64,000 nt of DNA, taken from assembly GCA_963734495.1 (NCBI GenBank), contig CAVTHK010000012.1, forward strand, positions 1 to 64,000, given 5' to 3'. Each line of letters opens with the position of its first letter. The stretch's first letter is position 1. The position numbers were made by a program, and so were the translations under genes. Source of the DNA: an uncultured Spirochaetota bacterium (lineage in GTDB: Bacteria; Spirochaetota; Spirochaetia; SZUA-6; CAVTHK01). Shown piece after piece: positions 10,041 through 34,722 of the stretch. The notes beneath the pieces were generated by a model. The model was not told the origin of the DNA, made no database searches, and saw only the letters and a program-made list of their open reading frames with translations.

Positions 10041-10171
10041 CCACACCCGGCAGGGTTGCCTTCCCATATTGTCATATCAGATATTGTAATTGTTTGACGT
10101 GGACTAACATCTGCAATACATTATCGTCTGGCGATCGAAACGTGACGGCAGACGTTCGCCAGGGACGAACA

Positions 10172-10996: not shown

Positions 10997-11862
10997 AGCC
11001 GCTGCGCACGCGCATGGAAGAAGCTCGCAAGCGGCTTGGCCTTCCCTGGGAGGTGCTCGAACGAGACTACCTTCTGTCCTGGATTCTGGCCGGCATCGGT
11101 CGTGTTCCTGGCTTTCGCGACGCACTTGCATTCAAGGGTGGGACTGCACTGAGAAAGTGTTACTTCGGCAACTACCGGTTCTCTGAAGACCTGGACTTCA
11201 CCGCAATCGGTTCGATCCCCGCAGGAGAGTCCATGGAGCGCGCGATCCGCGATGCGTGTGCGGTAGCGGCGAACCTCCTCGATCCCTATGCACCTGTGGA
11301 GATCGTGTCGACGCGCCACGTCGAACGCGATCCGCATCCCGCCGATCAGGAGGCGTTCGACATTCGCGCGCGATTGCCCTGGCACCGAGGGCTGCAAGTC
11401 AGGGTCATGGTCGAGGTGTCGACAGATGAGAAGGTGCTCAGACCGACTGTACGACGCCCGCTGTTTCACGACTACGGTGAGCCAATGGAGACTGAGTTGA
11501 CGGTTTATTCCCTGGAGGAGATCGTCGCGGAGAAGCTGCGCGCCATCCTCCAACACCTGCAGTCACTGGAGCGCCGGGGCTGGGCTCGTTCTCGCGCCCG
11601 CGACTACTATGACCTCTGGCGGATCCTCACCGGCTATCGCAACCGAATGGAGGTCTCCGACTTCCGCTCTTTCCTCCGTGCGAAGTGCGCCGTGAAGAGT
11701 GTGGCCTTCGCGGGCACCGAAGACTTCTTCTCGGAGGCGATGCTTTCGGCCGTCCAAACGACCTGGGAGCAGTGGCTCGGGCCGCTGGTGCCTGACCTTC
11801 CGCCCTGCGGGGAAGTGATCAGCCAACTCCGCCCACTTGTCGCCGATCTCGTTGGGTCCTGA
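10993..11862 (+). CDS. abiEii: AbiEii/AbiGii nucleotidyltransferase toxin
   Basis: FKGGTAL..CYF..YRFSEDLDF, EKLRA, RARDYYDL; ATGA overlap with abiEi. Confidence 0.9.
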   Translation: MKPLRTRMEEARKRLGLPWEVLERDYLLSWILAGIGRVPGFRDALAFKGGTALRKCYFGNYRFSEDLDFTAIGSIPAGESMERAIRDACAVAANLLDPYAPVEIVSTRHVERDPHPADQEAFDIRARLPWHRGLQVRVMVEVSTDEKVLRPTVRRPLFHDYGEPMETELTVYSLEEIVAEKLRAILQHLQSLERRGWARSRARDYYDLWRILTGYRNRMEVSDFRSFLRAKCAVKSVAFAGTEDFFSEAMLSAVQTTWEQWLGPLVPDLPPCGEVISQLRPLVADLVGS

Positions 11863-11889
11863 AGCGGCCCTTCAGAAGCATCACGTAGC

Positions 11890-12055
11890 TCTGAGCGGCT
11901 GGGCTACTTGTCCCTGCCGCCTTTTCCCCCGGCCTGCCGCAGCTTGTGATCATCATCGTGCAACTCCGGCATCCAGAGATCGATGACGAACCGTGCAGCG
12001 GGCGTGAGGTGCCGAGCTGCTGTGGACAGCGTGTCGCGATGAGGGTAACTTGGCA
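11890..12055 (+). pseudogene. Possible eroded HicA toxin remnant
   Basis: Fragments resembling ERLGY, HH and GI.EI directly upstream of hicB; no intact frame. Confidence 0.25.
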
Positions 12056-12057
12056 AC

Positions 12058-12267
12058 GTGGTGCGCTACGAGATCATCATCTACTGGAACAGCGAGGACG
12101 AGGCGTTCATCGCGGAAGTGCCGGAGCTTCCCGGATGCGCTGCTGACGGGTCCACTTACCAGGAGGCTCTGCGGAACGCGGAGACCATCATCGCGGAGTG
12201 GATCGAGACTGCCAAGGAGTTGGGACGCCCTATTCCCGAGCCCAGGGGACGGCTGGTCTTCGCGTAG
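12058..12267 (+). CDS. hicB: HicB-family antitoxin
   Basis: AFIAEVPELPGCAADGSTYQEAL...GRPIPEPRGRL. Confidence 0.9.
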   Translation: MVRYEIIIYWNSEDEAFIAEVPELPGCAADGSTYQEALRNAETIIAEWIETAKELGRPIPEPRGRLVFA

Positions 12268-12407
12268 GAGGGTTGATAGTTGCGGGCGGAGATGTCGCGC
12301 CCCGCTCGTTGAGGCGGCACGGCTCGGTGTGCTGCCTCACTTGCTCAGAGTTGGCGGCCCGCGGCAGGTTGCAGCTCGCCGCCAGCCGGGCACCGCCCGG
12401 GCCGCCG

Positions 12408-12884
12408 CTACGTCATGGGGGTGAGGCTCCCGTCCTTGAGAAGCCAGAGGTCCTCGATCCGCGCGAGGTGAAAGCCGTCGTGCAGCGCGATGTGCCGCAC
12501 AAGAAGCTCAAAGCCGTAGCTCTCGTATTCCGGATGCACCGCGGTCCTGCGCCAGACATCATCGGACACGCCGCGGATGAGGCGCACCTGCTTTTCGCGC
12601 CAGCGCGCAAAGGCCTCAACCAGCCCGGCCGCCGTGGGCGTGCCCTTGCCCGCGACCCTGGTCGGCGTATAGGGCGTGATCACGGGGTTGGGCTGGTCGC
12701 GGAACATCTCGAGGCGGGCCATCAGCACCTCCTGCGTCTCCACCAGGTGAAGCAGGTGCTCAAAGATGGTCCAGTAGCCTTCGCCCCGCTTCCTGTTGAG
12801 CGCCGGCTCCGGTATCGCCGACACGAGCTCCGCCAGCAGGCGCGGGCCGAGCTCGAGGGCGTCGATCAACGTCTTGTGATCCAT
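12408..12884 (-). CDS. DinB-family protein
   Basis: WTIFEHLLHL ... HIALHDGFHL; ATG 12884 after AAGGAGG. Confidence 0.8.
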   Translation of the reverse strand: MDHKTLIDALELGPRLLAELVSAIPEPALNRKRGEGYWTIFEHLLHLVETQEVLMARLEMFRDQPNPVITPYTPTRVAGKGTPTAAGLVEAFARWREKQVRLIRGVSDDVWRRTAVHPEYESYGFELLVRHIALHDGFHLARIEDLWLLKDGSLTPMT

Positions 12885-12901
12885 GGGGTCCTCCTTGGCG
12901 C

Positions 12902-13874
12902 TCACCCAGCCACGCGGATGACGATCTTGCCCTTGGCGTGCCCCTGCTCGAGCTCCCGCAGCGCCTGCGCGGTCTCCGCCAGCGGATAGACGCGGTCGAT
13001 GACCGCCTTCACCTTGCCCTCGTCGACGAGGCGCGTGAGGAATTCGATCCTCTCCGTCTCGGGCTTCGCGTTGACGACTGCGAGTGTCTTGCCCTGCGAG
13101 CCCAGGAACGGGCCGAGCAGCAACGCCTCGGCCAGCTGCCTGTTCTTGCCGCCGACCATCAGGTATCGCCCGCCCGGGACGCAGCGCGTCCCTGTAGCGC
13201 CGGATCGGGATGTAGCCGTTGACCGCGATGATCACGTCGTAGCGCTGCCCGCTGCGGGTGAAGTCCTCCCTGCCGTAGTCGACGACAAAGTCGGCGCCCA
13301 GCGCGCGGGCCTGCTCGGCCTTGCCGGCACTGCAGACCGCAGTGACCTCGGCGCCCAGGGCCTTGGCGATCTGCACGGCAAAGATCCCGACGCCTCCCGA
13401 CGCGCCGGCGATCACCACCCTGGCACCCGGGCCGACGCGGCCCATGTCCCGCAGCGCCCTCACCGCCGTGCCGCCCGCCAGCGGAAGGGTTGCCGCTTCC
13501 TCAAAGCTCATGGATTTCGGCTTGAGCGCGAGCAGGCCGTGGGGCACGCAGGTGTACTCGGCGCAGCCGCCGAACCCGGCCGGGAACAGGTCGGCGATCA
13601 CCTCGTCGCCGGGCTTGAAGCGCGACACGCCGGGGCCCATGGCCTCGACGGTGCCCGCCATGTCGCTGCCCGGCCCCTTGATGCGCGGGCGGGCGAGGCC
13701 CATATTCAGCCGCACGAGAAACGGGTCGGCCCTCACCATGCGCCAGTCCGCGGCGTTGAGGCCGGCCGCGGCGATGCGCACGAGCACCTGGTTGGCGGCC
13801 GGCACCGGCTTGGGCACGTCCCGCAACTCGAGCACGTCGGGCGATCCGTAGCGGGGGCAGACGATAGCTTTCAT
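12902..13874 (-). CDS. MDR-family NAD(P)-dependent oxidoreductase, frameshift near 13176
   Basis: YGSPDVLEL, GASGGVG, C-terminal GHAKGKIVI in the second frame. Confidence 0.85.
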
Positions 13875-13920
13875 GGGGATAGGGTAGCGGGGGGGCGCTG
13901 GTGGGGCAAGGGCGCGCTCT

Positions 13921-14078
13921 GGGCGTGCCCCCGAGGGCGACGATCGCTGCGGCTCGGGGTCGCGTGCTGCGGGGGTTCGGTCCTCGGCGGGCGGCGCTGG
14001 CGAGCATCGAGCCCCGCCGCGCGCCGCGCCTTCGGACCGGCCGGGCTCTCGCCCGGCCGCCCCTCCGCCCGCTCACGC
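13921..14078 (+). repeat. Structured interspersed repeat, copy 2
   Basis: Same conserved blocks as 134-298, with different but still base-paired internal hairpins. Confidence 0.8.
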
Positions 14079-14428
14079 AGGGAGCTGGCGATGACGCGCG
14101 TGTTGGCCGTGGCTGAGTGTGGCAGCAGGCCGCTCCCACTGATTCGGCAAAAGCATCCCGTCGTGCTATTGCTGCCGCAGCAGGGCGAGCAGGCTCTCTC
14201 GGTTCAGGGCAGCGGCCGCGCCGGGCGATTCCAGAAAGGCCTCACGTCGGCCACTGCCGCAGGCCAGTCCAGGCGGGTCAGTCTCTCCGCGACGATGGCG
14301 CGCCACAATTGCGCATCCACCGCGGGGCCGCTCCAGCCAGTCTGCGCAAGAGCGTTGCGCAAGAGCGTGATGTTGGGCCCCGGTCACGAGCGGTCGGCGA
14401 GATACCAGGCCAGGTCAAAGAGGGGGTG

Positions 14429-14458
14429 TTGACAATGTAGCCACAAGAAGCTACATTG
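14429..14458 (+). promoter_or_regulatory. Sigma70 promoter with overlapping palindromic operator of the TA operon
   Basis: TTGACA-17nt-TACATT; inverted repeat CAATGTAGC-N8-GCTACATTG; ATG 7 nt after the -10. Confidence 0.8.
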
Positions 14459-14464
14459 GGACAA

Positions 14465-14761
14465 ATGCCGACGCTCAAGACGGTCGGGATACGGGAGCTC
14501 AAGAATCGGCTTAGCGAGTACCTGCGGGAGGTCCGGCTGGGCACAACCATCTTGGTGACCGACCGAGGGACGGCCATCGCCGAGATCAGAGAGCCGTCGA
14601 TGGGCAGCACACCGCTGACAGACAACAGCCTGCTCCAAGCCTGGATTGGCGAGGGCAAGGTGCGCGGTCCTCTCTCGGCAAGGAAGCAAGCGGGGCTCAC
14701 GCCCCTCCACTTGCCTGACGGCACATCGCAGGCGCTTCTCGACAAGGAACGGGGCTCATGA
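14465..14761 (+). CDS. Phd/YefM-type antitoxin (VapB)
   Basis: VGIRELKNRLSEYLREV..G..ILVTDRG. Confidence 0.9.
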   Translation: MPTLKTVGIRELKNRLSEYLREVRLGTTILVTDRGTAIAEIREPSMGSTPLTDNSLLQAWIGEGKVRGPLSARKQAGLTPLHLPDGTSQALLDKERGS

Positions 14762-15189
14762 GGTCGGTGTACGTCGAGACTTCGGCGGTCCTTGCGTGGC
14801 TCCTCGGGGAGAGCAGGGCGACAACTGTCCTGTCAATCATCAACGATGCCGAGAGCGTGCTGACTTCGGTGCTCACCGGAGTCGAGGTGCGCAGGAGCCT
14901 GGCCAGGGCCCGCGCAGCCGGAGCAATCAGCGAGGCGGCGGCCGCTCACCTTGATGGCATCTTCGAGACCGTCTCGCGGACTTGGATCCTGATGGAAGCA
15001 GGTCCCGAAGTGCGGGCGCGCGCCGCCGCGCCGTTCCCCGTCGAGCCGATTCGGACTCTGGACGCAATACATCTGGCGACGGCCCTGGAGTTCCTCAGGG
15101 CAGTCGAGGACGTGCGTGTGCTTTCGCTCGACAAGAGGGTTCTCGACAACATCGGACCGCTCGGAATGCAGCCAGCCGCAGCAGCCTGA
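14758..15189 (+). CDS. vapC: PIN-domain VapC toxin
   Basis: YVETSA..., IRTLDAIHLATA, LSLDKR. Confidence 0.9.
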   Translation: MRSVYVETSAVLAWLLGESRATTVLSIINDAESVLTSVLTGVEVRRSLARARAAGAISEAAAAHLDGIFETVSRTWILMEAGPEVRARAAAPFPVEPIRTLDAIHLATALEFLRAVEDVRVLSLDKRVLDNIGPLGMQPAAAA

Positions 15190-15461: not shown

Positions 15462-16923
15462 ATGCAGGCACTCGACGAGCTGGTTCAGGGCATGAGCCGG
15501 GGGCGGGGCTGGAGCCACATGGGCGACGCGGACGCCGTGCGCGATCTGCTCTCGCGGGTCTACGACGAGCGGTATCACAAGGGCGCTCACCACAAAGACC
15601 GTTTCCAGGTGAGGGTCAACCTTCAGAAAAAGGACGACGCAGCCTCGTACGCCGGGTGGATCACCGCCGAAAACCCCACCTCGGGCCCTTATCAGGGCAC
15701 CTCGTTCGTGTGGTTCCCTGGCGAGGAGGGGAGCGTTGCCGTCCTGGTGGTGGGCACCGACGGCTTTGGAGCCGACAGCTCGATCCTCGGCCGACCCGGA
15801 CACGCGCGGCGCTTGCGCGCGTTGTCTCGCCTGCACAAGGGCAGGCTCTGGGTCAAGCCAGATCTCCTGGACATCACGACCGAAGTCCCCGGCGCGACCT
15901 CGCAGCAGTGGCCTGACATCGCGGCCGCGCTCAAGGCCTACGCGCGGGTCATCTACGCCGCGGCGGCCGTGCGCGGCGACGCCGACCGCCCGGTCGTGGA
16001 GGACCTGCTCGACCTGTTCTTCCACGAGCACGGCACGCCGCTCACGGGCGCCGCCAAGGAGCGATGGGCAGACCGGCTCGGGAGCATCGCCGGAGCGGTC
16101 TTTCCCGCCGTCGATGCCGAGCAAGTGCTTGCGATCCTGAGGGAACGGCGCTTTGTCATCCTCGAAGGGCCGCCGGGCACCGGCAAGACCCGGCTCGCCT
16201 TTGCGCTCGCCCGGGCGATCGGATCGTCCACGCGCGTGCAGTTCCACGCGGCGCGCACCTACGAGGATTTCGTGGTCGGCCTCTTTCCGCGTCCCACGGG
16301 GCAGGGGCTCGCCTTCGACGTGCGCCCCGGCGATCTGCTCGTGGCCAACGCCGCGGCCAGGGACCGCGAGCACGTGCTCGTCATCGACGAGATCAATCGC
16401 GCGGACCTTGCGCGGGTGCTGGGCGAAGCCGTGGCCCTCTTTGAAGTCGGCGAAACAGCGCGCAGCGTCCGCCTTCCGCACACGCCGCAGGGGTTCGAGC
16501 CGGATCTCACGCTGTCGCCCCACCTTCTCGTTGTCGGGACCAGGAACACGGCCGACCGGACCATCGCGCGAATGGACCTGGCCATCCGTCGCCGCTTCGC
16601 GTTTATCGAGGTGTGGCCGGACCTGCGGGCGGTCGAGGCCGAAGGCGTGGACCTCGCCACGCAGCTCTTTGAGGACACCGTCCACACGTTCGTGGAGTTT
16701 GCCGACGACGACACCTTGCGACTGGTCCCCGGCCACGCGTACTTTCTGGACCCGCGTCCCGATCTCGACGCCGGCGGCCGGGGCGGCCGCGTGGCGCGCC
16801 GCATGCGCTTTGAGCTCGTGCCGCTGCTGCGGCACTACCTCGACGAAAAGCTGTGCGGCGCGGCCACGGAGGCCATAGCCGGGCTCGCCGATCGGATCGA
16901 CGCGCGGCTGCTGGAGACGCTGA
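15462..16923 (+). CDS. mcrB: McrB-family AAA+ GTPase
   Basis: GPPGTGKT, QFH...YEDFV, IDEINRA, McrB NxxD motif (NTADRT), IRRRFAF; the expected TGA at 16921 is out of frame by one extra base in this sequence. Confidence 0.85.
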
Positions 16924-16927
16924 CGGC
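16892..16927 (+). repeat. Direct repeat L (mcrB end / mcrC start junction)
   Basis: TCGGATCGACGCGCGGCTGCTGGAGACGCTGACGGC, matches 26557-26591. Confidence 0.85.
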
Positions 16928-16974
16928 GGGTGCGCGGGCCGCCGAGCCAGGGGCGGAAGCGTGTAGCGCTTCGA

Positions 16975-17365
16975 CGGACCTGTTTCCTCGGAAACGTTTT
17001 TTCAGAAACGCCGCGGACATTTCTGGAGCAGGGTGCGGTCGGGCTTGGCCGGAAGCGTCGATTTCGGCCGACCGGGCCTTCTTCAATTTTCCAGAGCCCG
17101 AAGTCGAGCGTGTCGGGCGCGGCCTCTACCGCATCGCCGCCGCCGAGCCCACCGAGAGTTGCTCGCTCGCCATGGCCTGCGCACGCGTGCCGCAGCGTCA
17201 TCTGCGTGTGCACGGGATAGGAACCCAGACCCCTGCCGAGGTATGGCTGGCAATCCCGCATAAGGCGCGGGCACCTCGACTCCGCGAGCTGCGGCTGCGC
17301 ATCGTGCGATTCAGTGGTTCTGTGTTGACCTTGGGGTACAGGAGATCGAGCTCGAGGGCGTCCAC
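16975..17365 (+). pseudogene. Truncated AbiEi-family antitoxin
   Basis: VERVGRGLYR, HGIGTQTPAEVWLAI, RIVRFSG, then GVQEIELEGV after a frameshift; cut off at the PIN gene end. Confidence 0.65.
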
Positions 17366-17391
17366 CGCGCGGAGGCCTCGCCCAGCCGATC

Positions 17392-17799
17392 CTATCTCAG
17401 CTCGGGGAGCACCCGCAGGCCCTGCTCGGCGAAGTGAGCATCGAAGCAGAAGGCGGTGTTCAGGTGGAGCCGGCGCATCGTCTCGAAACTCACGCAATCG
17501 ACCAGGCTCAGCTCCCGCCGCCCCGCGACGAGCAGCGCATGATGGGCGGACCTGTGGGTCCCCTCATCGACCCAGGACACGTCGAGGACCGGCAGGATGT
17601 CGGATGTCAAGACACGCACCGCGTCGATCCCGATGCGCGCCTGCATGAGCGCAACCGTCTCGACGAGAACGTAGCTGCTCGTGTAAAGCGAGTGCTCTCC
17701 TCGCAGCATCTCGGTCCACTCGGCTCTCGCGGCTTCGTGATGCTCATCGGCCGCGTCGATCACGGCGTAGAGGGCCGAGGTGTCGACGAAGACGTTCAC
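17392..17799 (-). CDS. vapC: PIN-domain VapC toxin
   Basis: VFVDTSA, LSLVDCVSF, FCFDAHF. Confidence 0.9.
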   Translation of the reverse strand: MNVFVDTSALYAVIDAADEHHEAARAEWTEMLRGEHSLYTSSYVLVETVALMQARIGIDAVRVLTSDILPVLDVSWVDEGTHRSAHHALLVAGRRELSLVDCVSFETMRRLHLNTAFCFDAHFAEQGLRVLPELR

Positions 17800-18044
17800 C
17801 GCCCAAAGGCCTCGCCCAGGTAGTCGTCGTGGCGCCGGGAAACATCGCTGCGGGACGATCGGAAGCGTCCTGCGGCCTCGATGGCCCGCCGGCGAAGATC
17901 CTCGGGCTGCGCGGTCGTGTCCCGTTCCAAGACGGTGTCGATCCCCTGGCGGATCAACTCGGCGACGGAAGAACCCGTGCGAGCCGCAAGGGCCTTTAGC
18001 CTTTGCGATTGCTTCTCGGTGAGTTGGATCTGTGTCCGCACCAT
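17796..18044 (-). CDS. Ribbon-helix-helix (CopG-like) antitoxin
   Basis: MVRTQIQLT...SVAELIRQGID...HDDYL. Confidence 0.85.
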   Translation of the reverse strand: MVRTQIQLTEKQSQRLKALAARTGSSVAELIRQGIDTVLERDTTAQPEDLRRRAIEAAGRFRSSRSDVSRRHDDYLGEAFGR

Positions 18045-18087
18045 GATTAATCCGAGGCCATCATGATAACGCCGCCCGGTGCGGAAG

Positions 18088-18315
18088 TCAACTGACAGTC
18101 CGACCGGTTCGACACCCGGCTGCTCGAGCTCTGACGGGCAGGGCACGGGCCGCACCGCCCATTGTAAAGGCGTTCACGGGATTGGGTCGGGGGATGGTCA
18201 AGATGCGGCTGCCGTCGGTCATCACGATATGCTTGCTCTCGCGAACGACGCGAAATCCAGCTCTCTGGAGCGCGCGCACCGCATCCAGGTGGTTGATGCC
18301 CGGAATCTTGGGCAC
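18088..18315 (-). CDS. hicA: HicA-family toxin, C-terminus aberrant
   Basis: ALQRAGFRVVRESKHIVMTDG..ILTIPR; similarity lost after MGG. Confidence 0.7.
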   Translation of the reverse strand: MPKIPGINHLDAVRALQRAGFRVVRESKHIVMTDGSRILTIPRPNPVNAFTMGGAARALPVRARAAGCRTGRTVS

Positions 18316-18319
18316 GAGA

Positions 18320-18517
18320 CTACGCCGGGACCTCGACCTCGCGAATCACGGCTCCTTCGAGCAACTGATCTCTCGCGGCGAGATACTCCCGGATCGCGTC
18401 CTTTATGTTCTCGACCGCTTCGTGCTCCGTCGCCCCCTGTGACCAACAGCCGGGTAGTCCGGGGACACTGACGCTGAAGCCTTCGTCGTTCTGTTGCAGC
18501 GCGATCTTGTACCTCAT
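18320..18517 (-). CDS. hicB: HicB-family antitoxin
   Basis: SVSVPGLPGCWSQGATEHEAVENIKDAI. Confidence 0.9.
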   Translation of the reverse strand: MRYKIALQQNDEGFSVSVPGLPGCWSQGATEHEAVENIKDAIREYLAARDQLLEGAVIREVEVPA

Positions 18518-18550
18518 CGGCGTGATCTCCACCTTGCCCGCTTCCAGCCG

Positions 18551-18811
18551 CTACTCCCGGTCGCTTCGCGCGACGAGCGGGTACCTGTCGGGATGCCGGA
18601 TGCAGTCGACGTCCAGGTCGACATCAAGGTCGGGCCAATAGAAGTGACCTTCGCCTTGTTCGACTACGTTGAAGATCCGGTCCACCGCGGCCCGCCGGAA
18701 CCACGGGAACAAGTCGTGGTCGAGAAAGAGCTCCTCGGTCCCCCATGCCAGCCACAGGCCGAACGGGGTGACCTGGACGACTTCAACCTTCGAAGTGACG
18801 GTTCCAGGCAT
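18551..18811 (-). CDS. DUF2442 protein
   Basis: FPWFRRA...FYWPDLDVDL...HPDRYPL. Confidence 0.8.
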   Translation of the reverse strand: MPGTVTSKVEVVQVTPFGLWLAWGTEELFLDHDLFPWFRRAAVDRIFNVVEQGEGHFYWPDLDVDLDVDCIRHPDRYPLVARSDRE

Positions 18812-19022
18812 CGATGATCTCCTGCCTTCGTCTCCGAACGATTTCCTGGGCCTCCCGGGTCGACTGCTCACTCAGTCCTTTGGATGAGCACAGCTCGACT
18901 ACAGGTTCGATCCAGAACTTCGCCTCGCCGTCGGGACAGATGACGTGGACATGCAGTCGCGTCTCTTCGCGCGAGAAGAAGAAGAACCTGTAGCGACCTT
19001 CCCGAAAGATCGTGGGGCTCAC
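18783..19022 (-). CDS. DUF4160 protein
   Basis: SPTIFREGRYRFFFFSREE..LHVHV...EAKFWIEP. Confidence 0.85.
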   Translation of the reverse strand: MSPTIFREGRYRFFFFSREETRLHVHVICPDGEAKFWIEPVVELCSSKGLSEQSTREAQEIVRRRRQEIIDAWNRHFEG

Positions 19023-19212
19023 GCGACCATTATACAGCCGGAGGTTGCACCTGGCGAGGTCAGGGGAGTTGAGCAACGCTCGTTGGCGACCGGCTCGAGC
19101 GTCGGCACCGCGGCGGACACGACCCTCGGAGCCCGGCCGCGCCGCCTGCCTGGACCGCGGCGCCGTCGGGCCCTTTTTCGGCGCGACGAATCCGCGCCTC
19201 GTCGGCGCCGTG

Positions 19213-20427
19213 TCAGCCCGGCGTTTGTCCCTGGCCGATCTGAACACCGCCTGCCAATCGAAAGCCCATCTCGAGCAGGCGCGCTACCAGGTCGGCCTGC
19301 GGGATACGCTCCTGCTCCAGGCGCGCCGTTTTCGCCTCACGGCCCAATAGGGCCGCGAGAGCGAGCTCGCTCTCCGCGAGACCCTCGAGCGGCCCGTCGC
19401 GCCCGGCGGCGGTGTCTTCGACCGCCATCGACTTGTAGCGCTCCCACGTGGCCGCGTCCATGAGCAGCGGCTCTGCCCGGCCGAGGGCGGCGCGCACGGC
19501 GGCGAGGATCCTCAAGCCCGTGCGATCCATGTCTCCCCAGTACACGACGCGGCAGGATCGCAGCCACGGCAGCGAGCCGAGCACCGCGGCCTGAAAGCCG
19601 CTGCCCCAGATGCAGACCGCGCCCTCGACCGCGGGAAACGCCAGGAACGGCATCAGGTTCTCGACGACAAAGGCGGTGCGGCAGCGAACGTCGAGGCGCG
19701 CGAGCCGGGACGCGGGAGCGGCCAGGTCGTCCAACGGGCCGGGGGCGAGCGCCGGGTCGAGAAAGCGGACCCGGATCGTCGGCTCCGGGGTCTTGAGGCC
19801 AAAGCGCTGCTCAAAGGTCGTCGCCGCGGGGTCGATCGCCGTCGCCGGCAGCAGCAGGTCCAGGACGTCCCCGAGGATCCTGCGGTGCTCCTCGATGAAC
19901 TTGGTGTGAACGGGAACCGGCAGCTCGCGCACGTACAGGTCCGGGCGGGGATGGGCGGCAAAGTATCCGCACACGAGCACCAGATCCGGCCATTCGCCCA
20001 GGTGCTCGACAAAGCGCAGCGGCTTGTCCAGGACCCAGGTCGCAAGCCGAGGCAGCCGTTCCAGCACCAGCCGCGCCTCGGACACAAAGCGCTCGAGCTC
20101 GCGGCGCTTTCCCAGAAAGTCCAGGTAGTCCTCGCGGCTTTCAAAGGCGATCCGCTCGATGACCGTCTGCCGGCCGAGTGCGAGCGTGTTGACCTGCCGG
20201 TAGGTGAGGGTATAGCCGCGGCCCGTGGCGTTCTTGGACGCTGCGTGCAGGGCCTCCACGTCCCGACGGCCGGTCACGGCCTCCGTGCTCTTCCCACGGT
20301 CGGCGCGGACAGTCATCGGAAACAGCGGGTCGCCCGCGGTTGCGCCCGACGCCTCGTCGAGGGCCTCCCGCAGGACCTCCCCGTACCTGCGCAGGGCCTT
20401 GGCTCTGATCCCGTCGGGATCGATCAC
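19213..20427 (-). CDS. jetD: Wadjet JetD TOPRIM nuclease (DUF3322/DUF2220)
   Basis: YVRELPVPVHTKFIE, VVENL, YWGDMDRTG, RLEQERIP; GTGA overlap with jetC. Confidence 0.9.
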   Translation of the reverse strand: MIDPDGIRAKALRRYGEVLREALDEASGATAGDPLFPMTVRADRGKSTEAVTGRRDVEALHAASKNATGRGYTLTYRQVNTLALGRQTVIERIAFESREDYLDFLGKRRELERFVSEARLVLERLPRLATWVLDKPLRFVEHLGEWPDLVLVCGYFAAHPRPDLYVRELPVPVHTKFIEEHRRILGDVLDLLLPATAIDPAATTFEQRFGLKTPEPTIRVRFLDPALAPGPLDDLAAPASRLARLDVRCRTAFVVENLMPFLAFPAVEGAVCIWGSGFQAAVLGSLPWLRSCRVVYWGDMDRTGLRILAAVRAALGRAEPLLMDAATWERYKSMAVEDTAAGRDGPLEGLAESELALAALLGREAKTARLEQERIPQADLVARLLEMGFRLAGGVQIGQGQTPG

Positions 20428-23400
20428 GACAGGGGCTCCGCGACGCCGCGGCCGGCCTTGCGATACTCTTCTTTGCTCTCGAGGTAGCGCTCCAGCGTCA
20501 TGTTGTAGACCGACGAGCGGCGCTGGTCGCGGTTCTCCACGAAATGAACCGCGGACACGTAGTCCTCGACGACGTTGATCTTGTCCAGCGGCGTAACAAC
20601 CATGAGCTGGAGCTCCAAGGTGCGGAACAACTCCATGGCATAGGCGGCGTTGGCGGGATCGACCTTGCTGAACGCCTCGTCGACGATGACGAATCGAAAC
20701 GAGCGCGCCCGCGTGTCCGCCGCGCGGATCCCGAACTGGAACGCGATCGCCGAGGCGAGGATCGTGTAGGCGAGCTTGGCCTTTTCGCCGCCGGAGAGGC
20801 TGCGGGAGTCCTGGTAGTATTGCTTTTGGCTGCCGTCGGCCTTGTGTCTCTCCATCGCCGAGAACTGCAGCCAGTTGCGCACGTCCAGCACCTTGCGCCG
20901 CCACGCATCGTCGCCCCGCAGCGCGAGGACCAGGTCGCGCGTGCGGCCGAACGCGTGCTCCAACTCCGCCTCGTCGCCCTGGGCGATGAGGGCGGCGTCG
21001 CCGATGGCACCCCGCAGCTTTTCCCGGAACTCGCGCACCTGGACGTCCGTCGTGGCGCGCGCCTGGATCTCGATGTACGTGGGCGGGTTGCGGTTGTAGA
21101 GGATCTGGCCGAGGCTCTCGTTGAGCTCCGCGACCCCTTCTTCGATCTCGCGGCGGGCGGTGTCCAGGCTCTGGCTGAAATCGACGAGCTCCTCGAGCAT
21201 GCGGTCGTTGAGGTACTGGCGGAACCGCTGCTGGTACTTCGGCAGGTCCTCCTTGCTGATGCGCTCGTGGACCCGCTCGAACTCCTCGAGGTAGGCCGCG
21301 TCGGCCCTGAGGTCGATCACGTCCGCCGACCACCCCGGGTACTTCGTGGCGATCGCTGCCGGCGGGGTGCAGTACCGCGCCATCGCGAGCTCGAGGCCGC
21401 GGTGCGCGTCGGCCTCGGCGCGGCGGGCCGCCTCCTGGTCGCGCGCGATCGCATCGCGGCTGCTCTCGCGCTGCGCTTCGATCAGCTCCCACTCCGGGAG
21501 CGGAAAGGGCCGCGCGAGGTAGGGCGCCAGGGCGGCGACAAAGGCGTCGAGGTCGACGTGGTCATAGGCCAGGAGAAGGGTTTCGCGGTCGGCGAGCAGG
21601 GCGCGGTCCCGCGCGTCGGCCTCGGCGAGGGAGCGCGCCTGCGCCACGAGGCCGTCGCGCCGGTCCCGTTCCGCCTTGAGACGGGCGTCGACCCGCGCGA
21701 TACCCTGGTCGAGCTCCTTGAGCTTGGCGGAGGCGCCGACGAGGGAGCGGTGCTCGGATGCCAGCTCCTCGATGCGCACGACGCACTCTTTCCAGTCGAG
21801 CGGCTCGTATTCGCGGTACTCGAGCAGCCGCTCGATGGCGCTCTGGCGGGCCTGCGCCTCCTCGAGCTCACTTTCAGCCGCGGCAAGCCGTTCGCGCGCC
21901 GCCGCGACCTGCGCTCTCCAGGTCCCGCGCCTGGGCCGTGAGGGTGCGCAGCTTTTCGCGGTTGTCCCACCCGAGGACGTTGTCGGCGCCTCCGGGCCGC
22001 GGCGGCCGGTCGTCCTTTTCGTGGCGGGTCTCGCTCTTGATGAGGCCGCTGCTCGTGATGCCGCGCGCGAGCCGGGCAAAGGTCTCCAGGTCGTCCGTGC
22101 ACCGGTAGTCGAACGACGCCCGCAGGTGGTCTTCGATCCAGTCCTTGAAGGGCGTGTCCGGCTTGACCTCGAGCTTGGTGATGGCGCTCTCCGCGTCGAG
22201 CGGGCCGCTCCGGGAGCTTCGCGATCCGGGCGGCCACCTGGAAGTAGACGAGCCTGCCCCGCAGGTCGTGGTCCCGCACGAACCCGTTGATCCTGCGGTA
22301 GTGGTGCTGCGGGACCAGGACGCACAGCGCAAAGGACCTCAGGAGCTTTTCGAGAGCCGGCTCCCACGCCGACTCCTCGCGCCGCACGCGGATCAGCTCG
22401 CCGGCAAACGGGATCTCCGACTCCGCGATCCCCGTCCCGCGGCCTACGAGGGTGCGCAGGTCGAGGTTGCGCCGGGGGATGTTGCTCGTGCGGGAACTGA
22501 GCGAACGGACCTCCTCCGCCACCTCATCGTGCGCCGAGCGCAGCGTGTTCAGCTCGCCGCTGAGAGACACCAGACGCTGCCTCGCCTCGGCGGAGCCGGC
22601 AACGCCCTCGGCGTGCGCTGCGGCGAGACGGGTGCGATTGGCGCGAAAGTCGTCCTGCGACGTCACGGGCAGCCCGACCTCCGATGCGAGCTCGTCGTAG
22701 CGGGCGCGGGCCGCGCGGCGTTCGTCGCGCCGCTCCTCGAGGTGGCGGATCTCCTGCTCGATCTGCTGCAGGCGCATGGCGGTGCTGTCGGCCGCTCGGT
22801 CCCTGTTGAGCGTGTCGCGTTCCTCGGTCAACCCCGCGATGGCCTCGTCCGCTCGACCGAGCGCCAGCCCGTTGGCAGCTTGCTCCTCCGCCAGGCGCTC
22901 GAGGCGTCCGGTCAAAAAGCGCAGGGCTTCCCTCGCAAAGAGGGCGGGGTGGGCCTCGATCAGCTCGGCGAGGCGCTTGTGCTCCGCCTTGGCCGCCCGA
23001 AAGGACGCACCATGCTCGAGGACCGGGGCGAGCAGGGCGAGCTGCTCCCTTGCCTTTTCGATCTCGAGGTGGCTCGACAGCAGGTCGTCGTAGCTCTTGT
23101 CCAGGGCCGCGAATCGCTCCTGGAACCCCTGCTCCTCGAGCATGTGGGTCCGGATGAACTCGTTGAGATCTCCCAGCACCTTGACGCCGACGGTCTGCGA
23201 GAACAGCGACAGGGCCTTCTCGGACCGGAAACCGAACTCGCGGCCGAACGCCTGGCTGTACTGCTCAAAGCTGTCGTAGACCCGCCCCTTGAGGGCGTCT
23301 TTGATGCGGCGCTTCCAGTCGCCCGCTTTGTCAAAGGGCTCCAGGTCGCCGATCGAAATCTCGGCCGGGACCAGGAGGTATACACGTTGAAGGTTGCCGC

Positions 23401-23827
23401 CGGTGAGCCAGCGCACCTGCGCGAGCGTGAGCGCAGTCCCGAGGGCGGCGTTGCGGAACACCCCCGCGAGCACCGAGTACGTGTCGCGCTCGCGCAGGTA
23501 CTGGGCGCTCTGCCGCTGCCCCTCGGTATCCTGGAGGTTCCCGTAGGCCCCCAGCACGTACGTGAGCTCGGTGCGCTCGCGCTTGAGCTCGGCGCCGGAG
23601 GACTGGTTGTAGTGACGGCGGGCGGGCGGGACCAGGAGCGTGACCAGGGCGTCGACGAGCGTCGTCTTTCCCGAGCCGTTGGCCCCCGTGAGCAGGCTCG
23701 AGTCGCAGCCCGGCTCGAGGCGGTAGATGCTGCCGTCAAAGCTGCCCCAGTTGAGCAGCTCAAAGCTCTGGAGGCGGTAGCCTTCGCCACGGCCGTCGTC
23801 CTCGGCGAACAGGGAGGCCTCGCTCAT
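20424..23827 (-). CDS. jetC: Wadjet JetC SMC-like ATPase, two apparent frameshifts (~22210, ~21915)
   Basis: NWGSF, Walker A GANGSGKTT, coiled coil, LSGGEKAKL signature, Walker B VDEAF. Confidence 0.9.
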
Positions 23828-24396
23828 GCCAGGTGCGCCTCCATCGCCCGCTTGAACTCCTCGAGCAGATCGTTGTTGACCTTGGCCTTGACGATGCGCC
23901 TGACCTCGTACAGCACGTCCCCACCGGCCCCGCCTGAGCCCGCCTCCCGCAGAAAGCCCAGCTCCACCACCTGGCGGATGTAGCGGTCGAGCTCGCGCAT
24001 CAGCCGCGTCTGGTCCGTCTTTTCCTTAAAGTAGAGCGAGATCCGTTCCCGCAGATCGCGCGCGGAGAGGTAGAGCCTGCGGGCGTCGGCGCTGGTGGCG
24101 TCAAAGCGGTCCAGCTCCTCCCGCAGGATCACGAGGAGCAGCGATACCTCGAAAGAAAGGGGCATCCGGCGAAGCAGGCGCGGGCGGCCCTCCTCACCCT
24201 CGCCGTCGCTTTCCCGCAGGTAGGCAAAGCCTTCGGCCTCATCGAGTACCAGCTCCACGCCGATCTCGGCGAGGTAACGCTGCACCCCGGCGGCGTTGGC
24301 CACCAGCAGTTTCCACACCGGGTCCTCGTCGTAGACCGGCCCCTGGAGCAGCCGCACCACGGCGGGCGCCAGCTCGCGATAGTCTCCGTCGTTCAT
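23824..24396 (-). CDS. jetB: Wadjet JetB (DUF4194)
   Basis: LVLDEAEGFAYLR, LSFEVSLLLVILRE, YEVRRIVKA; position in operon. Confidence 0.9.
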   Translation of the reverse strand: MNDGDYRELAPAVVRLLQGPVYDEDPVWKLLVANAAGVQRYLAEIGVELVLDEAEGFAYLRESDGEGEEGRPRLLRRMPLSFEVSLLLVILREELDRFDATSADARRLYLSARDLRERISLYFKEKTDQTRLMRELDRYIRQVVELGFLREAGSGGAGGDVLYEVRRIVKAKVNNDLLEEFKRAMEAHLA

Positions 24397-25820
24397 AGCG
24401 CGTAGATCACCCTCGGGATGCGCAGCCTGACGATCCCATCATCCCTCTCGAACGTGACCTCGTCCCGGCCGCTGTCGCTCACGATCGAGGCGAGCGCCAC
24501 GTAGGTCACGATCTCCGCGAGGCCCTCGCGCGCGGGAAAGCGCTCCAGGACCTCCGGAAGCGAGACCTGGCTGCGTCCCTGGAGCATCTCCTGTATCTGC
24601 CCGCGCAGCCGCCGCTCGTCCACCGCCAGCTGCGAGAACAGCGCCCCAAAGGCGGCCGTGCTCATCTCCTGCTCCGCCTCGTCGGCGCGGACAAAGACGG
24701 TCTCCTTTTGCGGCAGCGAGAGGGGACGTGCCATCACGGTCCCCAGCGAAGCGCTGCCCTGCACCGCGAGAAAGGCCTCTTCCCGCGGCGGCGCGTCCAC
24801 CGCGGCGAGGGCGAGCCGCTTGATGTCCGCGATCAGCTCGCGCGTCCTCCGCTGCTCCCTGACGACTCGCTCGGCGAGCACGCGGCTCAGCTTTTCGGCG
24901 AGGATCCGGTTGCTGTCCACGACCTTGCGGCCGGCCTGGTGGAGGTGGTGCTTGAGGCGCCGAAGGAGCGCGTCAGGTCCCTCGACGCTGTGCTCGCCGG
25001 CCACGCGATAGACCTGGTCGACGAGGGCGTCGATCTCGTCGCGGCCGGAGTCGGCGACGAGGAAGCGCCAGAACGCGTCAAAGCTCTGGCCCTGCGGCGC
25101 CTTGTGCAGGGCTTCGACCATGTCAAGGGTGTGGCCGAGGATGCCGCCGCGGTCCGTCTGCCCTTCGCTCTGCTCCCGGTGGATCTCGCGCACGAGGTCG
25201 CGAAAGTTCTCCTCGACCTGGCGAAAATCGCCGAGCAGGGCCCGCGCATCGCGGCTGATCTCCTGCAGGCGCTCGCGGATCTGCACCGACGAGAACGTCC
25301 GGGCCTGTCCCGTCGTACGGATCGCCTCGATCTCGGCGTCGATCTCCGCCCGCCGCTGCTCGAGGTCCGCGATCCTCTTGCCGGGGTCGCCGCTGCTTTT
25401 CTCCGCGAGGTCGGCGATGCGGCGCAGGAGGTCCTGAAAGCGGCTCTCGGTCCCCACGAACTCCCTGGGCTGCAGGTCGTCGAGCCAGCGCAGCGCGAGC
25501 TCCATGGCCGGGGTCAGCTCGTGCTGCACCACGCCGTCGTCGTCGGTGTACTTGCGCAGGTAGCGGGACTGCTCTCCGCACCACGCGTCGATGAGCTGCG
25601 CGGCCCTGTCCACGACGTCGCCGTCGACGCTCTCGTCGTGTCCCCTGGCTTCGAGAGAGGACGCGAGCTGGAGCACCAGGTCCTGGTGCGACACCACGAT
25701 GATCTGCTTCGTCTTGAACGCTGCGTGCAGGAACCCCAGAATGAGCGAGGCATGCCGAGCCGCGAGCACCCGGACCGCCGGGTTGTCGGCGAGGACGTGT
25801 GTGAGCCAGGTGTCGTCCAT
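24393..25820 (-). CDS. jetA: Wadjet JetA (DUF3375)
   Basis: FVGTESR, DFRQVEENFR, QGQSFDAFW, EGLAEIVTY. Confidence 0.9.
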   Translation of the reverse strand: MDDTWLTHVLADNPAVRVLAARHASLILGFLHAAFKTKQIIVVSHQDLVLQLASSLEARGHDESVDGDVVDRAAQLIDAWCGEQSRYLRKYTDDDGVVQHELTPAMELALRWLDDLQPREFVGTESRFQDLLRRIADLAEKSSGDPGKRIADLEQRRAEIDAEIEAIRTTGQARTFSSVQIRERLQEISRDARALLGDFRQVEENFRDLVREIHREQSEGQTDRGGILGHTLDMVEALHKAPQGQSFDAFWRFLVADSGRDEIDALVDQVYRVAGEHSVEGPDALLRRLKHHLHQAGRKVVDSNRILAEKLSRVLAERVVREQRRTRELIADIKRLALAAVDAPPREEAFLAVQGSASLGTVMARPLSLPQKETVFVRADEAEQEMSTAAFGALFSQLAVDERRLRGQIQEMLQGRSQVSLPEVLERFPAREGLAEIVTYVALASIVSDSGRDEVTFERDDGIVRLRIPRVIYAL

Positions 25821-25987
25821 GTCGGTCTCCCGAGGTCTTCCGAGGTCCTCCGAGGCCCGGCCATTATACCCGGGCGGCGGCCGCGGGTCTCGCTGTCGAC
25901 CAGCGCATGTCGACCAGCGCACGCCCCCCGGGGCAACTGGCCTGCGCCACCCGGGCATGATAGGCTGGTCGGGCAGGTGAGACGCCC

Positions 25988-26173
25988 ATGGAGTTGAAGG
26001 TCACGACCCACGAGGAGCAGAGCCGGCAGGATCGCGCCTACTGGCGCAGTCGCACCCCGGAGGAGCGTCTGGACGCTGTCGAGGCGCTCAGGATCGAGGC
26101 AGGGAAGTTCCTCTATGAATACCCATCCCGACTTCGAAGAGTTGTTGCGATTGCTCGAAGAGAACGGCGTTGA
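25988..26173 (+). CDS. Small protein, partner of downstream nucleotidyltransferase
   Basis: D.AYWRSRTPEERLDAVE.LR pattern, 61 aa. Confidence 0.65.
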   Translation: MELKVTTHEEQSRQDRAYWRSRTPEERLDAVEALRIEAGKFLYEYPSRLRRVVAIARRERR

Positions 26174-26552
26174 CTCCATGATCGTCGGCGCTACGCCGTC
26201 GCCTTCCATGGTCATCCCGCTTTTCGACGACATCGAGCTGTTCTTTCGCGCGACCGAGGAGAACGTCGATCGCCTCCGCAAGGCGCTTGTGAGCTTCGGC
26301 TTTGACGAGACGGACCTCCCCGCGAGTGCGTTTCTCTCAAGAGGGAGCGTTCTTGCATTCGGGGTCGTCCCCACACGAGTCGACCTGGTCAACGAGATCG
26401 ACGGCGTCGGCTATGACGAGGCCAAGGCAAACGTCGTTCGGGGAACATACGGAAAGGTGAGCGTGCCTTTCATCGGCCGTGCGGACCTGATCAGGAACAA
26501 AAAGGCCATCCCTCGCGCCAGGGACAAGGCCGACGTCGAGGATCTGGAGTAG
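26115..26552 (+). CDS. Nucleotidyltransferase-family protein (local compensating frameshifts ~26190-26225)
   Basis: Alternative frame reads YAVAFHGHP; C-terminus DLIRNKKA..RARDKADVE. Confidence 0.7.
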   Translation: MNTHPDFEELLRLLEENGVDSMIVGATPSPSMVIPLFDDIELFFRATEENVDRLRKALVSFGFDETDLPASAFLSRGSVLAFGVVPTRVDLVNEIDGVGYDEAKANVVRGTYGKVSVPFIGRADLIRNKKAIPRARDKADVEDLE

Positions 26553-26556
26553 TGCC

Positions 26557-26591
26557 TCGGATCGACGCGGGGCTGCTGGAGACCTGATGGC
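26557..26591 (+). repeat. Direct repeat R (mcrB end / mcrC start junction)
   Basis: TCGGATCGACGCGGGGCTGCTGGAGACCTGATGGC; encodes RIDAGLLET-stop overlapping the mcrC ATG. Confidence 0.85.
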
Positions 26592-27990
26592 CAAAGCCAG
26601 GGGCAGGACAGAGAAGGGCAGGGCGCGGGCCGCCCTCATGGCAGCCGCGCCGTCCTCGCGCCCGCTGCTCAAGGGCCGCGATCACGGCGAGCCCGTGTCC
26701 GTGCGGCCCGACGACATCGGCGCTGCCGGCGACCGGTGGGTCGAGCCTTTCATCACGGCAAACAGGGCGTGTCTCCAGCGCCTCGAGCTCAAATATGAAG
26801 TGAAGGCCGACCCCACGCTCCGTGTCCTGATCAAACCCGGGCCGCGCATCGGCGCGGTCCCGCTGCTCAACCCGTCGACCCGCCGCGTGGCCGCGGGCCT
26901 CCTGATCGAGCCGCGCTTCCGCTGGGCCGCGCTGGGAGCGGTCTTTGGTGCGGTCGGCTTTTCCGTCGAGCCCGCCCTCGGCGGCGCTCCGCTCGTGCCT
27001 GGGTCCGCGCGCGAGGTGCCGCCGTGGCTGCTCGCGGGGCCGGTCATCGAGCGGATCGCGGCGCTGCTCCGCCACAAGCGGCGCGGATTCGTCGAACGCC
27101 GCGAGACCAGGAGCAGCCCGCGGGGACGCATCGAGTGGACGACGTGGGCCGCGTCGCAGGTCCCGCGTGGCGCGTGGGCCACCTTCCCCTGTGTCTTTTC
27201 TGAGCCCGACGACGATCCGGACCTGATCGCCGCTGTGCGCTGGACCCTCGCGAGGCTGCAGGACGATCTCGCGTCGGTGGCGGACTCGCTGCCGGCGCGC
27301 TATCTGCTCCGGCGCACAGCCGAGATCCAGGCCGAGGTCGGGCCGGGCGCGCTTCACAGGCCGCCGTCGAGCTGGACGCTGCCGGGCTCTTCGGCGTGGG
27401 TGGCCGCCGCGGTCGAGGCGATGACGTGGGTGGCCGAGGAGCGCGGCCTCGGCGGCGCCCGGACTCTCGACGGGCTGGCCTGGGATCTCCCGATCGATGC
27501 TGTGTGGGAAGCGTGGGTGGCCGCCTTTTCATCGACCCTTGCCAGGAGCCTGGGCATGGTCGCGACCCCGTTCCGCGCTGCCCGCAGGCACCTGCGCTGG
27601 GTCGGGCCTCACCATTCCATGCAGTCGCTGGCGCCCGACGTGGAGCTCAGGAGCGCCGAGCGTGTCGTCTGGATCGACGCCAAGTACAAGCCGCACCTCG
27701 AGCTCCTCGAGCGCAGGGACTGGCACGCCCTGTCCGAGGAGGTTCGCGCCGAGCACCGCGCCGACCTTCACCAGGCTCTTGCTTACGCCTCGCTCGCCGA
27801 CGTCTCGCAGGTGGACACGCTGTTGCTGTACCCGCAGATCGGCCGCGAGCTCGACGCCGTGACCACGGCGACCGTCACTTCGGGCCGGCGCAGGGTGCGC
27901 CTCGTGCTCGCGTCGGTGCCTTTCGGCTACAGCAGCCCGGACCAGCAGGAGCGGTGCCTGCGGCTTTTCCGCGAGCTGCTGGCGGCGTGA
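26587..27990 (+). CDS. mcrC: McrC-family PD-(D/E)XK restriction nuclease
   Basis: PRGRIEW, VWEAWV, LAPDVEL...WIDAKYK, ADLHQALAY, LLLYP. Confidence 0.8.
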   Translation: MAKARGRTEKGRARAALMAAAPSSRPLLKGRDHGEPVSVRPDDIGAAGDRWVEPFITANRACLQRLELKYEVKADPTLRVLIKPGPRIGAVPLLNPSTRRVAAGLLIEPRFRWAALGAVFGAVGFSVEPALGGAPLVPGSAREVPPWLLAGPVIERIAALLRHKRRGFVERRETRSSPRGRIEWTTWAASQVPRGAWATFPCVFSEPDDDPDLIAAVRWTLARLQDDLASVADSLPARYLLRRTAEIQAEVGPGALHRPPSSWTLPGSSAWVAAAVEAMTWVAEERGLGGARTLDGLAWDLPIDAVWEAWVAAFSSTLARSLGMVATPFRAARRHLRWVGPHHSMQSLAPDVELRSAERVVWIDAKYKPHLELLERRDWHALSEEVRAEHRADLHQALAYASLADVSQVDTLLLYPQIGRELDAVTTATVTSGRRRVRLVLASVPFGYSSPDQQERCLRLFRELLAA

Positions 27991-30219: not shown

Positions 30220-30513
30220 TCAGCGACGACCGCTTACAGGGTCGCTGTGGGTCCGCCCTGCGGTTCGGTCAGCGCGTCGACCCGCTCGTCGTGTTCGCCC
30301 TTCATTCTGCCATAGCACACTCGGCTTCAGTTCTTTGGAGGCGCACTCGGCGAGAAAGAGGTTGATCAAACTCTGGTAAGGAATGGCCGTTTGGACTGCC
30401 AAGGTCTTGAAGTACTCGATCGTGTCGTTGTCGATGCGGATCGAAATCTGCTTCTTGAGCTTGTTCACGTAGGGGTTGGCTATTGAACGGCCGAAGTCGT
30501 ATTCGCTGCGCAT
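30220..30513 (-). CDS. brnA: BrnA/CopG-like antitoxin
   Basis: MRSEYDF...NPY...KKQISIRID...PYQSLINL; 3' end uncertain. Confidence 0.8.
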   Translation of the reverse strand: MRSEYDFGRSIANPYVNKLKKQISIRIDNDTIEYFKTLAVQTAIPYQSLINLFLAECASKELKPSVLWQNEGRTRRAGRRADRTAGRTHSDPVSGRR

Positions 30514-30813
30514 GCTCATTCTCCTTGGGCGCTGTGGTACTGCTCCGCCTCACGTCTTGTGGCCCTTCGTGCGGAGACAATCCGGATGACTTCGTCGTTC
30601 TGCCGATAGCAGTGGCAGACGACCAAGAGCCAGAAGGTGACGGCTGAAATCCAGCAGAAGGAATCGGTCTTCCGGATCCGAATGCGCTGGATCGGCCATC
30701 ACGCGGGCGTTGGGATCATAGAAGGCGGTCCGCGCCTCCTCAAACGAAACCCCGTGCTTCTTGAGGTTCACTTGGCTCTCATCTTTGTCCCAAGTGAACC
30801 GTATGTATTGCAT
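30510..30813 (-). pseudogene. brnT: BrnT toxin, frameshifted
   Basis: FTWD...NLKKHGVSFEEA..FYDP...HS..EDRF; later frame LVVCHCYR..DEVIRIVSAR. Confidence 0.75.
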
Positions 30814-30975
30814 ATCTCTATTGTATAGACGCAGGCGCGAATCGGTCAACCGACGATGCGCACTTCAGTCTTCTCTCCTGATTGCGCACAGATGGGGGCG
30901 ACCCCCAGGCAGCAAGAATCCGCCTCGCGGACCTCTGGTCTATGTCCCAGAGCCCGCTGTTAGCTGTTCGTCTCA

Positions 30976-34693: not shown

Positions 34694-34722
34694 ACCCTCA
34701 CTCCCCCCGTCCAGCCCGGAAG

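Follow-up and report, generated by a model that had tools for sequence, protein, structure and literature searches.

Probable repeated insertion of Wadjet and toxin-antitoxin genes at the mcrB/mcrC junction of an uncultured Spirochaetota bacterium

How does one defense system come to lie inside the operon of another? We addressed this question for a 64,000-nt stretch of DNA (referred to as the window) from an uncultured Spirochaetota bacterium, positions 1 to 64,000 of contig CAVTHK010000012.1 in assembly GCA_963734495.1. In this window, a 9.6-kb block of Wadjet and toxin-antitoxin (TA) genes splits mcrB from mcrC, the two genes of a predicted McrBC system, and lies between two outer copies of the mcrB/mcrC junction. 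An earlier reading made from the letters of the window (the sequence-only reading) had taken the block for an element aimed at the junction, able to rebuild the end of the gene and serving either as a reversible switch between Wadjet and McrBC or as cargo at a defense hotspot. The explanation that we favor, as probable but well short of certain, is that at least two successive insertions built the split operon, each brought in from related-strain DNA by general, homology-dependent recombination and not by a dedicated integrase. The locus is neither a new mobile element nor a shown switch, and its type of footprint has already been published.

The empty site is preserved in a relative. Hereafter, G000 is the genome under study, G001 is a genome of the same genus, and G022, G034, and G055 are genomes of genus g2. 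In G001, the mcrB stop overlaps the mcrC start, forming a coupled empty site. Among 160 homologous loci, mcrC is adjacent to mcrB in all 145 that are informative; the other 15 end within 410 bp of mcrB, and none is split. These 160 loci were drawn from two partly overlapping sets, 482 loci in genomes and 491 in metagenomes, with the best 80 taken from each. Because the two genes are adjacent in G001 and in every informative locus, the 9.6-kb block is an insertion, and the ancestral coupled junction proposed by the sequence-only reading is borne out. Different cargo at the same site, which that reading proposed to look for in homologous mcrBC loci, was present in none of the 145 informative loci. 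The mcrB/mcrC junction is not a broad hotspot.

The two outer junction copies, J1 on the left and J3 on the right, lie where the sequence-only reading had placed them. Their cores (16892-16918 in J1 and 26557-26583 in J3) are identical at 26 of 27 positions, or at 33 of 36 with one indel, a repeat quality reached in 0 of 30 shuffles of the window. With up to 4 mismatches allowed, the core was found nowhere else in the 5.4-Mb genome. J3 reads RIDAGLLET*, and its TGA (26585-26587) overlaps the mcrC ATG, which confirms the right copy as the mcrB end. J1 departs from this form by one extra base, by ACG instead of ATG, and by a 27-nt deletion of the mcrC start. The extra base removes the stop, so that the mcrB open reading frame (ORF; ATG at 15462) reads in frame through an AbiEi fragment to 17648, whereas the sequence-only reading had placed the mcrB end in J1.

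A third copy, J2, was overlooked in the sequence-only reading, which counted only two. J2 lies at 18100-18153 and matches J1 at 78% over 55 nt (E = 2.4e-5 against the whole genome), with a score of 59 compared with at most 45 in 40 shuffles. A probe made from J3 alone scored 50 and was exceeded by 1 of 40 shuffles; the identification of J2 therefore rests on its match to J1. J2 retains the stop and has the ACG for ATG and the 27-nt deletion of the mcrC start in common with J1. It is bordered on one side by the vapB promoter match and on the other by the cut 3' end of hicA. Since J2 lies inside the cargo, the insert consists of two blocks. The sequences of J1, J2, and J3 all differ from one another. 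Long probes for further junction copies in the cargo gave nothing above background, and a 33-bp repeat around vapC (17353/17787) is weak, with a score within the shuffle range. The features of the locus, in window coordinates, are as follows.

15462..16919, + strand: mcrB-like AAA+ GTPase gene; 486 codons homologous to relatives, with the ORF reading on to a stop at 17648
16888..16942, + strand: J1, the left junction copy; live mcrB end and decayed mcrC start, core at 16892-16918
17100..17348, + strand: AbiEi antitoxin fragment, in frame with mcrB; PADLOC AbiEi E = 1.6e-17, residues 592-671 of the long ORF
17392..18091, - strand: vapBC module; RHH antitoxin at 17796-18044 and PIN toxin at 17392-17799
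18091-18063, - strand: sigma70-like promoter match of vapBC, abutting J2
18100..18153, + strand: J2, the third junction copy; reads DRFDTRLLEL*
18154..18532, - strand: hicB and 3'-truncated hicA, joined to the right end of J2
18551..19057, - strand: DUF4160-DUF2442 TA-type pair; promoter match at 19057-19029
19213..25820, - strand: Wadjet type I, jetABCD (PADLOC JetA1/B1/C1/D1); jetA 24393-25820, jetB 23824-24396, jetC 20424-23827, and jetD 19213-20430
25988..26552, + strand: 61-aa ORF and DUF6036-like nucleotidyltransferase gene (frameshifted in the assembly), directly upstream of J3 and mcrC
26557..26589, + strand: J3, the right junction copy; last 9 mcrB codons, GGAG motif, and TGA/ATG overlap
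26587..27990, + strand: mcrC-like nuclease subunit gene; intact, 467 aa; PF10117 E = 1.3e-5, over the cut-off

Between J1 and J3, the block holds jetABCD, an RHH-PIN pair (vapBC), hicB-hicA, DUF4160-DUF2442, the 61-aa ORF with its DUF6036-like neighbor, and the AbiEi fragment. Family scans agree with the sequence-only reading on this cargo: integrase and transposase families had no match among the scanned ORFs of the block, and the contig holds none of the genome's 17 tyrosine-recombinase (PF00589) matches. The window copy of the DUF6036-like gene had no Pfam match, and its 81%-identical copy in G001 matches PF19502 at E = 1.2e-4, below the cut-off. The jet genes are arranged in the order jetA, jetB, jetC, jetD, with PADLOC E values of 9e-116, 3e-56, 2e-164/2e-128, and 5e-109, respectively. 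Wadjet homologs were detected in 37 of 301 genomes of the class, but their identity, which does not exceed 43% across most of JetA, makes them too distant for a comparison of ends. G001 gave no match to the jet genes in a DNA search and is not among the genomes listed with Wadjet homologs.

By what route could such modules have entered? In the favored explanation, donor DNA carrying a short junction copy beside a defense or TA module would have anchored at the resident junction and then integrated, leaving one live and one dead copy from different alleles. Repeated events would stack modules, here [AbiEi, vapBC] and [hicAB, DUF4160/2442, jetABCD, DUF6036 pair] in either order, and small deletions would later trim the dead copies and neighboring genes. 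A synonymous bias between repeat copies suggests this kind of homologous recombination with DNA from related strains. Eight hand-picked coding repeat pairs together showed 45 synonymous and 41 non-synonymous differences, with proportions of synonymous (pS) and non-synonymous (pN) differences of 0.143 and 0.049 (p = 1e-6 against neutrality); five non-coding or unframed sets were left out (L304, the 66-bp repeat of L305, L306, L307, and the second L303 pair). One of the pairs, in G034 (L305 1272-3322, G034:C55), is a 288-bp duplicate of the end of an NADH dehydrogenase/antiporter subunit gene around two vapBC modules, and it has 16 synonymous and 3 non-synonymous differences (p = 5e-4 against decay of one copy). 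Because this bias shows both copies under selection, we interpret the L305 copies as alleles of different strains. J1 and J2, with 3 synonymous and 2 non-synonymous differences in 8 codons, lean the same way. A ComEC-family gene is also present in the genome, but such genes are near-universal and this is weak support.

An independent metagenome provided contigs from relatives. Across the sequencing runs, shares of the organism's words were 0.05-0.07, with no run above 7%, and the runs hold relatives only. In run X3, which comes from another study, a 695-nt contig extends over J1 into the AbiEi region (16404-17089, 74 differences, 10 gaps). In a 574-nt contig from the same run, 17774-18111, which covers vapB and reaches base 12 of J2, is linked through 21 other letters to 26806-27020 in mcrC. 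A relative carries the split and has the vapBC module beside a truncated mcrC without Wadjet between. This single loss state in X3 removes about 220 bp of mcrC and so is imprecise. Among the 15 joints listed of 30 in X3, none connects J1 to J3.

Several observations weigh against recombination with related-strain DNA, and they temper our confidence in it. J2 has the deletion of J1 yet diverges from J1 more than J3 does, so the copies do not fix the order of the two insertion events. The allele signal at the locus is thin, since J1 and J3 differ by one non-synonymous base and by no synonymous difference. The pooled bias over the eight pairs reaches only p = 0.053 when compared with a model in which a dead copy drifts while the live copy gains silent changes. 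Stretches of 27-55 bp are short for a RecA-type crossover. The X3 evidence consists of two single contigs with a depth of 4-5, aligned at 80% likeness. In five relatives, target-type repeats flank 3 of 83 PIN/HepT loci compared with 2 of 200 controls (p = 0.15), an enrichment that is not significant; this test used 72 of 96 PIN matches, dropped three of the first 30 loci for short flanks, did not count three PIN genes of G034:C55 whose position between repeats was known beforehand, and contained some overlapping HepT and PIN loci.

The main rival is duplication of the target during break repair or replication restart, in which a staggered break or a template switch would capture foreign DNA, the resident junction would be copied, and the dead copies would decay. 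The J1 and J3 cores, with their single mismatch and no synonymous difference, are consistent with such copying, and several pairs carry stops and non-synonymous changes, as decay predicts. Double-strand breakage is proposed as the common cause in Furuta 2010 (PMC2853133). Decay of one copy, however, predicts a pN of at least half pS, and the G034 pair stands at 16 to 3; J2, supposedly dead, retains its stop and carries silent changes. We consider this rival unlikely. Less probable still is a junction that serves as the attachment site of a trans-acting recombinase, with excision toggling between Wadjet and a coupled McrBC. Excision would indeed restore the coupled frame, as the sequence-only reading expected: by computation, a crossover between the J1 and J3 cores gives a 486-residue McrB ending on the mcrC start. 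The 17 tyrosine-recombinase matches of the genome include integron integrases, the site was hit more than once, with junction stubs recurring in G369 and G022, and the E. coli H47 island is an example of recombination at imperfect repeats by an island that has no integrase. Yet H47 excision is reported as not recoverable in vivo (PMC5426353). At our locus, the left copy has no regenerated stop, there is no inverted symmetry, terminal repeat, attC likeness, or other attachment-site-like structure, and 0 of 145 informative homologous loci are split, so that an element with the junction as its target and the power to restore the gene end is not supported. A reversible switch fares no better: no precise excision or J1-to-J3 joint was seen among the joints listed (from runs of relatives only), the only loss takes about 220 bp of mcrC, and mcrC keeps a ribosome-binding motif and its whole ORF while the block is inserted. 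Exact removal of the block by recombination between two 27-bp homologies, with 9.6 kb separating them, would be a rare event.

Transposases of the IS1634 family make long variable duplications, and G000 has one such transposase as well as integrons with attC arrays holding TA cassettes. Non-autonomous transposition by this enzyme, or insertion by an integron integrase at a secondary site, is nevertheless a very improbable source of the block and is largely refuted. The 12-bp IS1634 end occurs at no cassette boundary, the modules have no inverted repeats at their ends, and nothing in the window matches the attC of the genome. Neither inner or terminal inverted repeats nor IS1634 ends nor attC matches were found at J1-J3 or the module boundaries, and J1-J3 form no stable hairpin, the copies folding no better than shuffles. 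An artifact of an error-prone long-read assembly would be in keeping with the frame changes in 38 of 146 conserved genes tested, but the three copies are mutually different. Misassembly is also disfavored because the independent X3 contigs cross J1 into the cargo and link vapB/J2 to mcrC, and we give it almost no credence.

The frame changes do affect how the Wadjet genes are read. The jetC gene is spread over three frames, with two frame changes in 3.4 kb of an SMC ATPase gene. Measured against G001 proteins, the 38 affected genes correspond to about 0.29 frame changes per kb, a rough rate since the query set included some shadow ORFs, and about one jetC frame change is expected from this assembly error rate. 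Decay of Wadjet was considered and rejected as unproven given that rate. Assembly errors could account for both jetC frame changes and for the base gained in J1, although an error that falls on J1 itself is less likely by chance.

To what extent does the insertion disable McrBC? The mcrB product has an AAA_5 match, a match to PRK11331 (E = 1.7e-23, below the cut-off), and a match to the E. coli McrB structure 6hz4 (E = 9e-25). Relative to the G001 proteins, the McrB of the window is 80% identical and the McrC 78%. The McrB translation shows the motifs of an AAA+ GTPase, NTAD among them, and the McrC partner is present. The N-terminal 203 residues of McrB had no Pfam match at E up to 1; this domain (window 15462-16070, about 200 aa) is conserved among close homologs and is a candidate undescribed recognition domain. 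A GGAG motif in J3 lies 5 nt before the mcrC ATG, and the same-strand DUF6036-like pair ends 4 nt before J3, although a scan found no promoter match for that pair upstream of mcrC. Because the mcrC ORF is intact, J3 supplies the GGAG motif, and a same-strand gene pair lies just upstream, expression without excision is plausible, and McrC can probably still be made in the inserted state. Wadjet and the predicted McrBC likely coexist, and with mcrB and mcrC both still whole, an either-or switch need not be invoked.

The same footprint occurs elsewhere in G000. Direct repeats that score 40 bits or more and lie no farther than 1.5 kb away flank 6 of 29 TA genes compared with 9 of 300 random sites; two of the six are integron attC arrays, and four copy a neighboring gene or junction. 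Such target-type repeats thus flank 4 of 29 TA genes versus 9 of 300 random sites (p = 0.02), with J1/J2 as one of the four. Without the window's own five TA genes, the count in G000 is 3 of 24, scored as 3/26 (p = 0.06). One target copy parallels our locus closely: a PIN module is surrounded by an 88-bp duplicate of the site where a helicase gene meets the partner gene upstream of it, and this gene pair is coupled in 2 of 2 readable homologs. Other target copies in G000 measure 418 bp and 127 bp. The target-duplication mode around TA genes is real but minor.

Individual loci show how this footprint varies. At L299 (6826-7711 and 9931-12011, G000:C11), vapBC modules lie on both sides of a UvrD-type helicase gene, and each module is enclosed by a duplicate. 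One duplicate covers 88 bp of the upstream junction and has ATA in place of ATG in its downstream copy; the other is 418 bp internal to the gene and ends about 450 bp short of the gene end. At L301 (3391-4904, G000:C6), the gene enclosed by a 135-bp copy of the 3' part of an aldo-keto reductase gene encodes a 2-hydroxyacid dehydrogenase, and cargo other than TA genes can thus have this footprint. The attC-like arrays of G000, with repeats of about 110 bp, lie at C1:485-15577 with C1:17407, C11:1-1082 with C11:2778, C9:23188-26665, and C18:956-6111; two recombinases adjacent to these arrays match the integron integrase model.

Traces of the mcrB/mcrC junction among TA genes extend beyond the genus. 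McrC matches were found in 7 of 92 genomes of the order, intact in G000 and G001 and as fragments only in five genomes of genus g2. In G022, G034, and G055, which belong to a neighboring family, mcrB/mcrC remnants lie among TA genes. G022 has mcrBC pieces on five contigs, 82-97% identical to each other; among them is a duplicated mcrC end of 204 bp that encloses an AAA_14/DUF4143 gene. In G369, a stub consisting of the last mcrB codons and the mcrC start lies ahead of a hicAB-like pair, recognized from its translation. The hotspot envisaged in the sequence-only reading is therefore partly supported on a local scale, given the third copy, the relative's vapBC contig without Wadjet, and the remnants in the neighboring family, whereas broadly it falls with the absence of any split among the 145 informative loci. 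It is conceivable, though we lean toward doubting it, that the mcrB/mcrC junction serves bacteria of this order as a recurrent landing pad that needs no recombinase, with defense and TA modules passing from strain to strain along with junction stubs of ~30-50 bp and stacking by homology, so that diverged stubs would record separate donors.

Two further features accompany the remnants in genus g2. A methyltransferase-HNH gene lies beside them in three genomes and was matched at only 3 of 161 mcrB loci. On G055:C4 (L022 5096-14040), a TA array that includes an mcrC remnant lies between XerC-like recombinase genes, two inverted copies with 77% identity, and is followed by a methyltransferase-HNH gene and an mcrB scrap.

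Within the window, further TA-type modules surround the locus at 9381-15189 and 30220-30849 (MNT, AbiEi/AbiEii, HicB, Phd-PIN, and BrnT/BrnA), and so mcrBC sits in a wider TA-rich island. Beside this island, 4349-8812 encodes a UvrD-like helicase of 1487 aa whose long C-terminal part is rich in repeats. Dispersed GC-rich repeat elements at 130-296, 9069-9442, and 13912-14078 have copies on other contigs. Farther along the window, a perfect 43-bp repeat of the 3' end of a tRNA-Asn gene (30976-31018/34817-34859) flanks a 3.8-kb island with an inner 22-bp repeat at 31131/34723. An ORF in this island (34475-34789) had no Pfam match; we take it to resemble an integrase N-terminal remnant.

The entry and pile-up of TA and defense modules without mobility genes into defense islands are poorly explained. 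The locus offers a readable record, in which three copies of the junction can be set beside its empty site and beside a relative carrying part of the cargo, and the synonymous bias between repeat copies is a testable signature that separates donor-allele recombination from target copying. If the landing-pad reading is true, it would also provide a route by which defense islands grow inside a defense operon while keeping that operon expressed.

How does the locus compare with known systems? For restriction-modification (RM) genes, insertion with long target duplication is reportedly described by Nobusato et al. 2000. Our locus resembles the class as set out in Furuta 2010 (PMC2853133) in having an insert of <20 kb, no mobility gene, an imperfect long direct repeat of the target, an empty site in a relative, a repeat overlapping a gene end, and a gene fusion at the junction. 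It differs in that the cargo consists of Wadjet and TA modules, not of the R and M genes by which that class is defined, in that the target is itself a restriction operon, and in that three copies record stacked events. Relative to the 30-bp limit given there, the repeat length is borderline: J1/J3 measure 27 bp ungapped and 36 bp with one indel, and J1/J2 measure 55 bp at 78%. The same paper states no evidence for release or re-infection, whereas the copies here show signs of different alleles; were the landing-pad reading true, it would supply genomic evidence for the "release and re-infection" step missing from the long-target-duplication model.

Other systems share single traits with the locus. 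The E. coli H47 island (PMC3191183; PMC5426353) is, like our block, integrase-less and set between imperfect direct repeats; it is about 13 kb long, has repeats of 148/144 bp at 77% identity and microcin cargo, and excises as detected by polymerase chain reaction only, whereas the repeats here are shorter and no excision was seen. Nested defense systems, with one system within the operon of another as here, are described in bioRxiv 10.1101/2024.01.29.577857; the hosts named are Hma, BREX, DISARM, and Type I RM, and the terms "McrBC" and "recombination" do not appear in its main text. Our search, which left most subscription journals outside, found no report of Wadjet or TA cargo inside mcrBC with junction duplication and none that links McrBC or Wadjet to nesting or repeats, and by title it found no TA insertion with long duplication. 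The McrBC pair resembles that of E. coli (PDB 6hz4, 6ut6) in joining an AAA+ GTPase to a nuclease-like partner. The Wadjet genes follow the four-gene jetABCD order of type I (PADLOC JetA1-D1), a system recognized here by its gene content. Collectively, the locus fits insertion with long target duplication: it is a real, twice-hit site of a known type, with an unusual cargo and an unusual target.

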